Shown here one piece after another: positions 18,571-19,017 of a stretch of 64,000 nucleotides of DNA (positions are counted from its first letter, which is position 1; each line of letters opens with the position of its first letter). The position numbers and the translations under genes are program-made. The stretch lies in the IMG/VR virus record IMGVR_UViG_3300021387_000118, positions 141,168 through 205,167 of that record; one strand, given 5' to 3'. The notes below the pieces were generated by a model. The model was not told where the DNA came from, searched no databases, and saw only the letters and a program-made list of their open reading frames with translations. Origin of the DNA: a virus.

Positions 18571-18633
18571 TAGGCGCTTACAGCAACTTTCTTTTTCATA
18601 GACAAGCTGATGATTAAAAGGAGATAGCGCCTA
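18571..18633 (+). ncRNA. hairpin RNA module U0 (stem TAGGCGCT/AGCGCCTA, loop begins TACAGCAAC)
   Basis: An 8-bp stem. Conserved loop-proximal motif TAG-N5-TACAGCAA, repeated 5 times between 18571 and 19017. Confidence 0.4.
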
Positions 18634-18638
18634 GTCAT

Positions 18639-18754
18639 GGAGACATAGCTCAACTGGTAGAGCACTGATAGGTATCTAGTTTTTGATACGAACAGCAAAT
18701 TTTATTATGGTCTGTAAAACCCAGATGTTTCAGGTTCGAGTCCTGATGTCTCCA
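18639..18754 (+). ncRNA. tRNA-like RNA 1 with about 44-nt insertion in the anticodon region
   Basis: Perfect acceptor stem GGAGACA/TGTCTCC, D arm GCTC-AACTGGTA-GAGC, T arm CAGG-TTCGAGT-CCTG. The central 66 nt contain the hairpin GTATC..GATAC and the ACAGCAAA motif. No canonical anticodon arm. Confidence 0.55.
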
Positions 18755-18757
18755 TTC

Positions 18758-18883
18758 CGGAACGTAGCTCAATTGGTAGAGCAATTCAATAATGTAATTA
18801 GTATCTAGTATTAGATACTTACAGCAAACTATTCAAGGCAGATAGGGATGAATGTGTTTCAGGTTCGAGTCCTGACGTTCCGA
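18758..18883 (+). ncRNA. tRNA-like RNA 2 with about 53-nt insertion in the anticodon loop
   Basis: Acceptor CGGAACG/CGTTCCG, D arm GCTC-AATTGGTA-GAGC, anticodon stem ATTCA/TGAAT enclosing a 60-nt loop with the hairpin AGTATCTA/TAGATACT and TACAGCAAAC. Variable GTGTT. T arm TCAGG-TTCGAGT-CCTGA. Confidence 0.55.
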
Positions 18884-18896
18884 TTACCCCATAGTT

Positions 18897-18960
18897 TAGG
18901 CACATACAGCAAATTTTGTTATAGGATAATCTGTTAAATTATTTACTATTTATGTGCCTA
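18897..18960 (+). ncRNA. hairpin RNA module U3 (stem TAGGCACAT/ATGTGCCTA)
   Basis: A 9-bp stem with the loop starting ACAGCAAATTTTG. Confidence 0.4.
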
Positions 18961-18967
18961 GTTTATT

Positions 18968-19017
18968 TAGATGCTTACAGCAAACTTTAATTGTAAAGGC
19001 GATATTACAGCATCTAG
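18968..19017 (+). ncRNA. hairpin RNA module U4 (stem TAGATGCT/AGCATCTA)
   Basis: An 8-bp stem with the loop starting TACAGCAAACTTTA. Ends 14 nt before the start codon of the Ro60-like gene. Confidence 0.4.

Follow-up and report, generated by a model that had tools for sequence, protein, structure and literature searches.

A module shared by small structured RNAs beside Ro60-like genes of phages is most likely the RNA-binding site of the encoded protein

INTRODUCTION

The Ro60 protein of Thermus phage phiLo (Protein Data Bank [PDB] entry 9KOP) binds two Y-like RNAs that are encoded upstream of its gene. In these RNAs the 5' and 3' strands form a stem that is followed by CGAA at nucleotides 8 to 11, mutation of this CGAA makes binding three- to fourfold weaker, and the complex of Ro60 and RNA engages the host PNPase (PMC12135203). 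YrlA and other Y RNAs carry GNCGAAN0-1G or GGUCCGA on the 5' side of the terminal stem, and this element is where Ro60 is presumed, or has been proven, to bind (PMC4201824). Here we describe an array of small structured RNAs that flanks the gene for a Ro60-like protein in a viral DNA of 64,000 nucleotides (nt) (IMG/VR record IMGVR_UViG_3300021387_000118, positions 141,168 to 205,167; hereafter the window). The RNAs share a short helix and an ACAGCAA motif, five copies of which had been noticed from the letters alone (hereafter the original prediction). Because this module accompanies the Ro60-like gene in phages whose hosts belong to at least three phyla, it is most likely the RNA-binding site of that protein.

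The locus resembles that of phiLo (9KOP, 9L5Y; PMC12135203) in several respects. Both phages encode a ring-shaped Ro60 homologue, the phiLo protein (phiRo60) being the best structural match of the protein studied here; in both, RNAs are encoded upstream of the gene, their ends form a stem that flanks a loop, and the 5' strand is directly followed by a short motif, which in phiLo is needed for tight binding. On the other hand, the phiLo motif is CGAA, phiLo has two RNAs (Yrl1 and Yrl2) as against five to seven here, no tRNA frames are reported for them, and the two proteins share about 16% sequence identity in the structural alignment.

The likeness to the YrlA RNAs (Rfam RF02553), which are bound by Rsr (PMC4201824), extends to a position beside a Ro60-like gene on the same strand, often in several copies, to a terminal 5'/3' stem after which, close to the 5' end, comes a short motif that is purine rich and conserved, and to a tRNA-like domain with a D-arm and a T-arm. 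However, the motif is GNCGAAN0-1G in YrlA and N-A-CAGCAA plus a 3' G here, the presumed protein partner belongs to DUF2828 and not to Pfam TROVE, and a tRNA-like domain is missing altogether from many of our units. The YrlA RNAs have a permuted tRNA-like domain, and their ends meet in the binding stem; here, the ends of the tRNA frame are the natural ones, and the candidate binding helix is a capped insert. Metazoan Y RNAs (RF00019) also consist of a stem, an internal loop and a second stem, and their lower stem carries the Ro60 site, with Ro60 contacting mainly the 5' strand; the units described here differ in lacking the bulged-C helix, any sequence similarity and an RNA polymerase III origin, and are instead tRNA derived. 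As in Y RNAs, the two ends of units 1, 4 and 5 of the window (Table 1) form a stem next to a large internal loop; this is not the case for the tRNA-embedded copies, where the helix is capped. The array lies within a few kb of a Ro60-family gene on the same strand.

Rfam 15 holds no matching family: at E <= 10 the window gives only tRNA and one weak YrlA match, a partial one of 29 bits (threshold, 69) that spans the junction of two tRNA-like genes, besides matches to sau-41, GibS, mir-728 and R2 that are noise. A full-text search of the literature found no DUF2828-associated RNA, and some of the mycobacteriophage units may already be catalogued as YrlA-like (Chen et al. 2014).

RESULTS

An RNA array on both sides of a Ro60-like gene

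The noncoding stretch between the stop codon of the upstream open reading frame (ORF) (18476) and the ATG (19032) of a 505-amino-acid (aa) ORF is 555 nt long and contains five RNA units; two degenerate units follow directly after the ORF (Table 1). All seven lie on the strand of the ORF, 15 to 460 nt upstream or 10 to 200 nt downstream of it, and neighboring units are separated by gaps of 3 to 13 nt. A promoter-like site heads the array. It is kept in the homologous loci L001 and L002 (loci are numbered with the prefix L), has equivalents of the form TTGACA-17-TATAAT in locus L003 and in Bacillus phage Nate, and no terminator-like site was found between it and the ORF.

The five repeated copies of the original prediction are thus real: they are tandem small structured RNAs, two of them built on tRNA frames. 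As it had also stated, the stand-alone copies have 8- to 9-bp stems with the partner strand downstream, and in the tRNA-like copies the partner lies upstream. The proposed consensus needs two corrections. The window has exact copies of TAG-N6-ACAGCAA at four places only (18571, 18812, 18897 and 18968, all on the + strand), the fifth copy (18683-18698) having TTG in place of TAG; and ACAGCAA occurs in all five copies, but the longer form ACAGCAAAYT does not hold for copy 1, which reads ACAGCAACTT. ACAGCAA alone has 19 copies in the window, where 7.9 +/- 2.75 would be expected; no shuffle out of 100 gave as many, and the five copies of the array are concentrated within 410 nt. The further statement that the window has no other cluster stands outside the locus, where covariance model R1 (built from 84 stand-alone units, with the outer helix as sole structure) gives a single partial match (4139, E = 3.6) and where nothing but the flanks of the Ro60-like gene matches below E = 1; it has to be amended by the two degenerate units past the ORF. 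Unit 7 has a weak score of its own; support comes from its position and from units found downstream of the gene in other loci.

The 505-aa protein matches the Pfam families PF11443 (DUF2828; 8e-39) and PF25043 (DUF7788; 2e-36) and belongs to PHROG 850, "RNA-binding protein." Its AlphaFold2 model (predicted local distance difference test, 81) consists of a helical-repeat ring and a C-terminal vWA domain. A Foldseek comparison of this model with the PDB gave the Thermus phage Ro60 (9kop, "Trove domain"; E = 5e-8, TM 0.55 to 0.59) and a Ro60 with misfolded pre-5S rRNA (9nep_A; E = 2e-6), each with an alignment that covers the full length (about 510 columns); vWA domains rank next. By its predicted fold, the protein is Ro60/TROVE-like. 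Sequence comparison did not reveal this relationship: Pfam reports DUF2828 and DUF7788 and no TROVE match, and a profile search of PDB sequences with the ORF retrieved no Ro60. With tblastn the protein family was found in 697 phage records at <40% identity. DUF2828 carriers include FelixO1-like phages, Herelleviridae, mycobacteriophages and thousands of metagenomic contigs; the annotations in about 700 sequenced phages read "RNA-binding protein," "vWFA protein" or "hypothetical," and some mycobacteriophage genes are annotated "Ro-like RNA binding protein."

One conserved module in two circular permutations

We assembled 166 homologous loci whose encoded proteins are 45 to 90% identical to the ORF. 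An alignment-based scan of viral contigs was successful; an exact-peptide scan of viral contigs with the ORF protein alone gave no match, and neither blastn of the leader nor megablast of 24 kb against known phages returned anything useful. In the 166 loci CAGCAA is found 1,130 times on the strand of the gene and 299 times on the other (3.8-fold). Alignment on CAGCAA gave the consensus 5'-W-A-G-R-C-R-C-N | N-A-C-A-G-C-A-A-(U-rich) ... N-G-Y-G-Y-C-U-W | G, that is, a helix of about 8 bp (5'-WAGRCRCN / NGYGYCUW-3'; the purine-rich WAGRCRCN strand is semiconserved) with N-A-CAGCAA after its 5' strand and a G after its 3' strand. This G directly follows the partner strand in 95% of the stand-alone units and is the first loop base in 92% (47/51) of the embedded ones.

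Pair counts on the alignment of selected units (A2) are circular, because those units had been chosen for pairing, and were not used as evidence. Pairing was assessed instead at 735 unique CAGCAA sites that had not been selected for it. A perfect 8-bp partner lies 12 to 89 nt downstream (median, about 45 nt) at 188 of these sites, against 22 when the 5' strand is shuffled, and just upstream at 49, against 5 in the shuffled control. Covariation in homologous phages, which had been proposed as a check of the original prediction, is present: the motif is conserved there, with compensatory changes in the stem. The unit 4 orthologue in L003, for instance, has UAGACACAU/AUGUGUCUA where the window has UAGGCACAU/AUGUGCCUA, and the 3' strand of unit 5 reads GGCAUCUA in L001, with the U-G pair retained. 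Conservation of the leader as a whole is a poor guide: in L001 and L002 the leader is 97 to 98% identical and the ORF 80 to 90%, but since the upstream gene is likewise 96 to 97% identical, the leader's conservation cannot be read as selection and points to mosaic recombination.

In the stand-alone topology the helix closes a loop of 30 to 60 nt, and the median unit is about 62 nt long. The loops contain no single conserved inner pairing. An anticodon-arm-like hairpin (5-bp stem, YU-NNN-R loop) is found in 63 of 216 stand-alone units (29%), against 6 in shuffled controls, and a T-arm in 22 of the 216; the remainder are unstructured or idiosyncratic, and internal-loop sizes taken from minimum-energy folds were uninformative. 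In the embedded topology the order is partner strand, a loop that starts with G (usually a tetraloop, most often GUAU), the WAGRCRCN strand and N-A-CAGCAA. The two forms are circular permutations of one module. Conservation is limited to the helix and the two elements that flank it, which suggests that the module works in either permutation.

Two-way linkage of module and gene

In 100 homologous loci R1 gave 258 matches with E < 0.01, all on the strand of the gene. Copies that fit a strict regular expression for the module were counted on the gene's strand and on the opposite strand: there are 113 and 0 in the 250 nt that precede the start codon, 46 and 2 at 250 to 500 nt upstream, and 18 and 1 in the first 250 nt downstream of the gene. 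Of 103 distinct loci, 81 have one or more modules adjacent to the gene. The original prediction had named two outcomes that would speak against it, namely, frequent occurrence in coding contexts of related genomes and absence from homologous phages. Neither is seen: the motif is kept in those phages, where it is noncoding, strand specific and concentrated beside the gene. Nor does it behave as a dispersed repeat (of the repetitive extragenic palindrome or miniature inverted-repeat transposable element kind), with copies on both strands across the genome, since R1 matches one strand beside one gene.

The linkage also holds in the reverse direction. Two patterns that describe the RNA alone (AGACAC/AGGCAC..ACAGCAA..N25-55..GUGUCUWG/GUGCCUWG) were scanned over viral contigs and gave at least 120 loci each, mostly in phage contigs of 50 to 300 kb. 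Among the matches listed, 78 sites had at least 2.5 kb on both sides, and 52 of them have a DUF2828 homologue within 2.5 kb on the same strand, compared with none on the opposite strand.

The module in distant cultured phages

Cultured phages whose proteins are 31 to 38% identical to the ORF were examined for an R1 match, or for the motif by eye, beside the gene. There are five units within and after the tRNA cluster of Bacillus phage Nate (L168), a unit at 2897-2965 of the Enterococcus phage VRE9_3 locus (L167), three units just downstream of the gene in Staphylococcus phage S-CoN_Ph10 (R1 E = 6e-8 to 9e-6), three upstream in Listeria phage LP-125, two inside the tRNA cluster of the FelixO1-like Escherichia coli phage wV8 and three downstream in Mycobacterium phage JoeDirt. 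The pairing of module and gene thus spans phages of at least three bacterial host phyla.

The middle unit of JoeDirt, which follows a gene annotated "Ro-like," matches the Rfam YrlA model over its full length with 39.8 bits (threshold, 69). A T-arm, a D-arm and a closed acceptor-like stem are present, and AG-CAGCAA comes after the 5' terminal helix. The hexamer CAGCAA (3029-3034) lies directly 5' of the stretch aligned to the GGCGAA positions of the model, so that the ACAGCAA module falls in that region of the terminal stem in which the known Ro60-binding element is found.

Some other features of these phages may be mentioned. In LP-125 (L397) a match to ROOL RNA just below the threshold (84 versus 99 bits) lies at 81-517, about 1 kb upstream of the DUF2828 gene, and a gene for an RtcB-like RNA ligase begins at 4349, 1.3 kb downstream of it; this is the only one of the phages examined with such a gene nearby, and the two features link the locus to other large phage noncoding RNAs and to RNA repair. 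Between two units upstream of gp237, Nate has an unannotated segment of about 180 nt with a higher G+C content (2520-2700), which may be a further structured RNA. Tiny coding sequences for "hypothetical proteins" are annotated over the units in S-CoN_Ph10 (L399, 3001-3254) and VRE9_3 (L167, 2659-2984) and are probably misannotated noncoding RNA genes.

Copies embedded in tRNA frames

Both tRNA-like copies of the window pass the Rfam tRNA threshold (RF00005) and, like tRNAs, have an acceptor stem, a D-arm and a T-arm; they differ from tRNAs in a structured insert of 45 to 60 nt at or near positions 26 to 31, and a splicing machinery is not evident. ARAGORN called neither. In copy 1 a possible anticodon arm is split by the insert, and copy 2 has no anticodon loop. 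The first of these genes is missing from L002 and is therefore dispensable.

Across the loci there are 62 unique embedded modules, inserted after the D-arm, 52 of them with a T-arm downstream. The insertion site is near the junction of the D-arm and the anticodon stem, and the tRNA bodies include Asn-GUU, Thr, Tyr, Lys, Ser and Pro types. Besides the window, 11 loci contain at least 14 long tRNA-like genes (115 to 132 nt) that score above the tRNA threshold and adjoin ordinary tRNAs; the ordinary tRNAs in the same clusters have no module. In several examples, read by eye, the insert follows 2 to 3 bp of the anticodon stem, and looping it out restores a canonical arm, as in L044 (CGU|GC-CUGUUAA-GC|ACG). 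When inserts were deleted in silico and the products given to ARAGORN, many related copies regained a plausible anticodon arm, mostly Asn-GUU, in a test that is permissive and noisy and credible only where many deletion variants agree. No group I, group II or other intron family in Rfam matched at E <= 10.

The embedded copies might be read as (conditionally) working phage tRNAs (Asn, Thr, Tyr, Lys and others) that carry a handle for the Ro60-like protein, with which the phage tags its own tRNAs or decoys. We regard this as unlikely; if true, the handle, at the junction of D-arm and anticodon stem, could shield the tRNAs from host anticodon nucleases or make them bait for these enzymes, or the insert could be removed by a protein-guided splicing unlike any known in bacteria.

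TABLE 1 Promoter-like site, RNA units and gene of the window locus. R1, covariance model of the stand-alone units; z, z score of the predicted fold
Feature	Position	Strand	Elements	Scores
Promoter-like site TTGCAA-17 nt-TATAAT, heads RNA array and ORF	18506..18534	+		Consensus match at 10/12 positions
Unit 1, stand-alone	18571..18634	+	Helix UAGGCGCU (18571-18578) / AGCGCCUA (18626-18633); G 18634; UACAGCAACUU 18579-18589	R1 48.4 bits, E = 3e-8; terminal helix retained in minimum-energy fold, z = -2.4
tRNA-like gene 1 (acceptor stem, D-arm, T-arm) with inserted module	18639..18754	+	Degenerate, weaker 5-bp hairpin GUAUC (18672-18676) / GAUAC (18685-18689); ACAGCAA 18692-18698; anticodon-arm-like GGU-CUGUAAA-ACC 18709-18721; flanks CUG (18665-18667) and CAG (18722-18724)	Rfam tRNA 50.4 bits (threshold 29); cloverleaf-like fold, z = -2.8
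tRNA-like gene 2, module replaces anticodon loop	18758..18883	+	Hairpin AGUAUCUA (18800-18807), GUAU loop, UAGAUACU (18812-18819); UACAGCAAACU 18820-18830	Rfam tRNA 50.6 bits (threshold 29); z = -3.8
Unit 4, stand-alone	18897..18961	+	Helix UAGGCACAU (18897-18905) / AUGUGCCUA (18952-18960); G 18961; ACAGCAAAUU 18906-18915	R1 62 bits, E = 3e-11; z = -3.6
Unit 5, stand-alone	18968..19017	+	Helix UAGAUGCU (18968-18975) / AGCAUCUA (19009-19016); G 19017; ACAGCAAACU 18977-18986	R1 41.4 bits, E = 1e-6; z = -3.2
ORF, Ro60/TROVE-like protein by predicted fold (DUF2828 + DUF7788; helical-repeat ring and vWA domain), presumed partner	19032..20549	+		
Unit 6, degenerate stand-alone, 3' of ORF	20559..20635	+	UAGAUACA / UGUAUCUA (20627-20634); G 20635; ACAGCGA 20568-20574	R1 26.4 bits, E = 0.0025 (model match 20557-20637)
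Unit 7, degenerate stand-alone	20644..20746	+	UAGGCGGG / CCCGCCUA (20738-20745); G 20746; AACUGCAAA 20654-20662	R1 19.8 bits, E = 0.07 (model match 20642-20748)

Neighboring genes and other tRNA-like elements

The 317-aa ORF upstream of the array (17523-18476) is its constant neighbor in L001 to L003. It belongs to PHROG 16999 ("Fe-S oxidoreductase") and has a faint N-terminal match to radical SAM proteins (E = 0.12); its product might be an RNA-modifying enzyme. ORFs of homing-endonuclease type lie directly downstream of the DUF2828 gene in L002 (LAGLIDADG_2, 4538-5671) and L393 (RRXRR/HNH, 10693-11937) and mark the region as a recombination hot spot. No RNA-repair enzymes were found among the neighboring genes of close relatives.

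The window contains further tRNA-like elements. Two copies of an element of about 88 nt (21754-21841 and 22380-22466), the first of which ARAGORN calls "tRNA-Cys(aca)," are not reported by the Rfam tRNA model at its threshold and may be another class of tRNA-derived RNA. Two related tRNA-like genes (about 21870-22000 and 22195-22375), with AUGUGGUGGCGGAAUAUGUAGACGC as the 5' part and AGGUGAAAAUCCUUACCCRCAU as the 3' part, have inserts of about 80 and about 150 nt between D-arm and T-arm that do not contain ACAGCAA; they have no Rfam match other than a chance-level one to FMN (22.6 bits). A G+C-rich, structured-looking spacer (22601-22838) separates a tRNA reported by Rfam alone (22530-22600) from tRNA-Leu (22839-22926) and matches no Rfam family.

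DISCUSSION

Our results clearly demonstrate that a module composed of one helix and two flanking elements is conserved beside the genes for Ro60-like DUF2828 proteins, in phages of distant hosts. We consider it probable, though by no means certain, that the units are the cognate Y-RNA-like ligands of the Ro60-like protein and that the module is its docking site. The original prediction had suggested a protein-binding determinant, perhaps for this protein, and the fold of the protein, the conservation of the module and its linkage to the gene all support that suggestion, with physical binding as the presumed basis.

The array would then be a phage counterpart of the Y RNAs, encoded in the leader of the gene and just after it. 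One transcript, probably started at the promoter-like site (18506-18534), would probably be cut into the individual units as in tRNA arrays, because the spacers are only 3 to 13 nt long. The Ro60-like protein would dock on the module, which would be analogous to the terminal stem with the GGUCCGA, GNCGAA or CGAA element that is bound by Ro60, and which would be presented either as the terminal stem of a hairpin RNA of about 55 to 70 nt or, in capped form, as a side-arm within the body of a tRNA. What varies between the units (tRNA frames, whether complete or partial, anticodon-arm-like hairpins or nothing) would be the effector parts. We speculate that they could present tRNA-like surfaces to tRNA-binding enzymes or nucleases of the host or the phage and serve as tether, gate or decoy, by analogy with the Ro60-Y RNA-PNPase complex.

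Several observations weigh against this interpretation. None of the Ro60 sites defined by experiment has this motif: in place of a conserved GGUCCGA, GNCGAAN0-1G or CGAA in the 5' strand, the units have the consensus WAGRCRCN-NA-CAGCAA, and they contain no consistent CGAA. The protein belongs to a Pfam family (DUF2828) different from TROVE. Among the matches listed, no gene could be detected within 2.5 kb of one third of the RNA-seeded sites, and some family members, such as Vibrio phage nt-1, have no module within 3 kb of the gene. The predicted single-strandedness of ACAGCAA (0.59 to 0.77 versus about 0.53 in the shuffled control) is a modest excess. The phage-specific variant of the module (first base pair) is shared within a phage at a frequency of 0.634 versus 0.572 by chance, a weak effect that gives no clear signal of RNA-protein covariation.

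Three other explanations fit the strand-specific, gene-centered conservation across phyla less well than does binding by the Ro60-like protein. The module could be mainly an RNA-processing signal, at which an endonuclease of host or phage cuts the transcript or trims the tRNA-like RNAs independently of the Ro60-like protein. The units are spaced like those of tRNA arrays and in many phages lie inside tRNA clusters, cleavage could occur at the conserved G beyond the helix and at the A that precedes CAGCAA, and RNase P cleaves the YrlA of Mycobacterium smegmatis (PMC4201824). A processing signal should, however, follow tRNA clusters regardless of DUF2828, whereas the module tracks the gene in both directions, peaks within 250 nt before its start codon and is absent from ordinary tRNAs of the same clusters; furthermore, a semiconserved helix with two flanks about one helical turn apart looks more like a stable binding site. 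We therefore judge processing improbable as the main function, although it may be a role that the module has alongside binding. It seems quite unlikely, too, that the array is purely a cis-acting autoregulatory leader through which the protein tunes its own translation, the units having no function in trans. The density of modules is indeed highest directly upstream of the start codon, and in the window the 3' strand of unit 5 ends at 19016, so that the ribosome-binding site GGAAAGGA (19017-19024) starts with the conserved G of this unit (19017), which makes some autoregulation possible in the window. The last unit adjoins the ribosome-binding site in L011, L028 and L064 as well. In most loci, however, it ends 20 to 120 nt before the start, with other sequence between; such adjacency, and with it an occluded ribosome-binding site, is not general among the loci. 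Units also occur downstream of the gene (in the Staphylococcus phage, JoeDirt and units 6 and 7 of the window) and in distant tRNA clusters, and an operator would not need multiple copies framed by tRNAs.

The hairpin with ACAGCAA might finally be a selfish element, or one resembling an intron, that spreads by insertion into intergenic DNA and tRNA genes; the copies in tRNA frames would then be interrupted genes and the stand-alone copies relics. In keeping with this, the interruption of many different tRNA bodies falls at much the same point, where the D-arm meets the anticodon stem, copy number differs among close relatives (L002 is without one of the tRNA-like genes), and homing-endonuclease ORFs lie nearby in some loci. 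Yet the element has no ORF and no match to group I or other introns in Rfam, shares a strict strand bias with the gene and is confined to the gene's neighborhood. Its conservation across at least three host phyla, with covariation in the helix and two conserved flanks, indicates selection on the RNA, and we consider this origin very unlikely.

With the module read as the site at which the Ro60-like protein docks, the logic of the locus is that of Ro60 and Y RNAs, and the recognition motif and the Pfam family differ; to judge from Rfam and the papers searched, the grafting into tRNA frames with natural ends would be new. The DUF2828 family thereby gains a concrete candidate RNA ligand that can be found with a covariance model, and the partnership of Ro60 and Y RNAs would reach into a second phage clade, far larger and with another recognition motif, in which the same docking module is used in two circular permutations, one of them grafted into otherwise complete tRNAs. 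Since the module is present in cultured phages, the role of Ro60-type particles during infection is directly testable.

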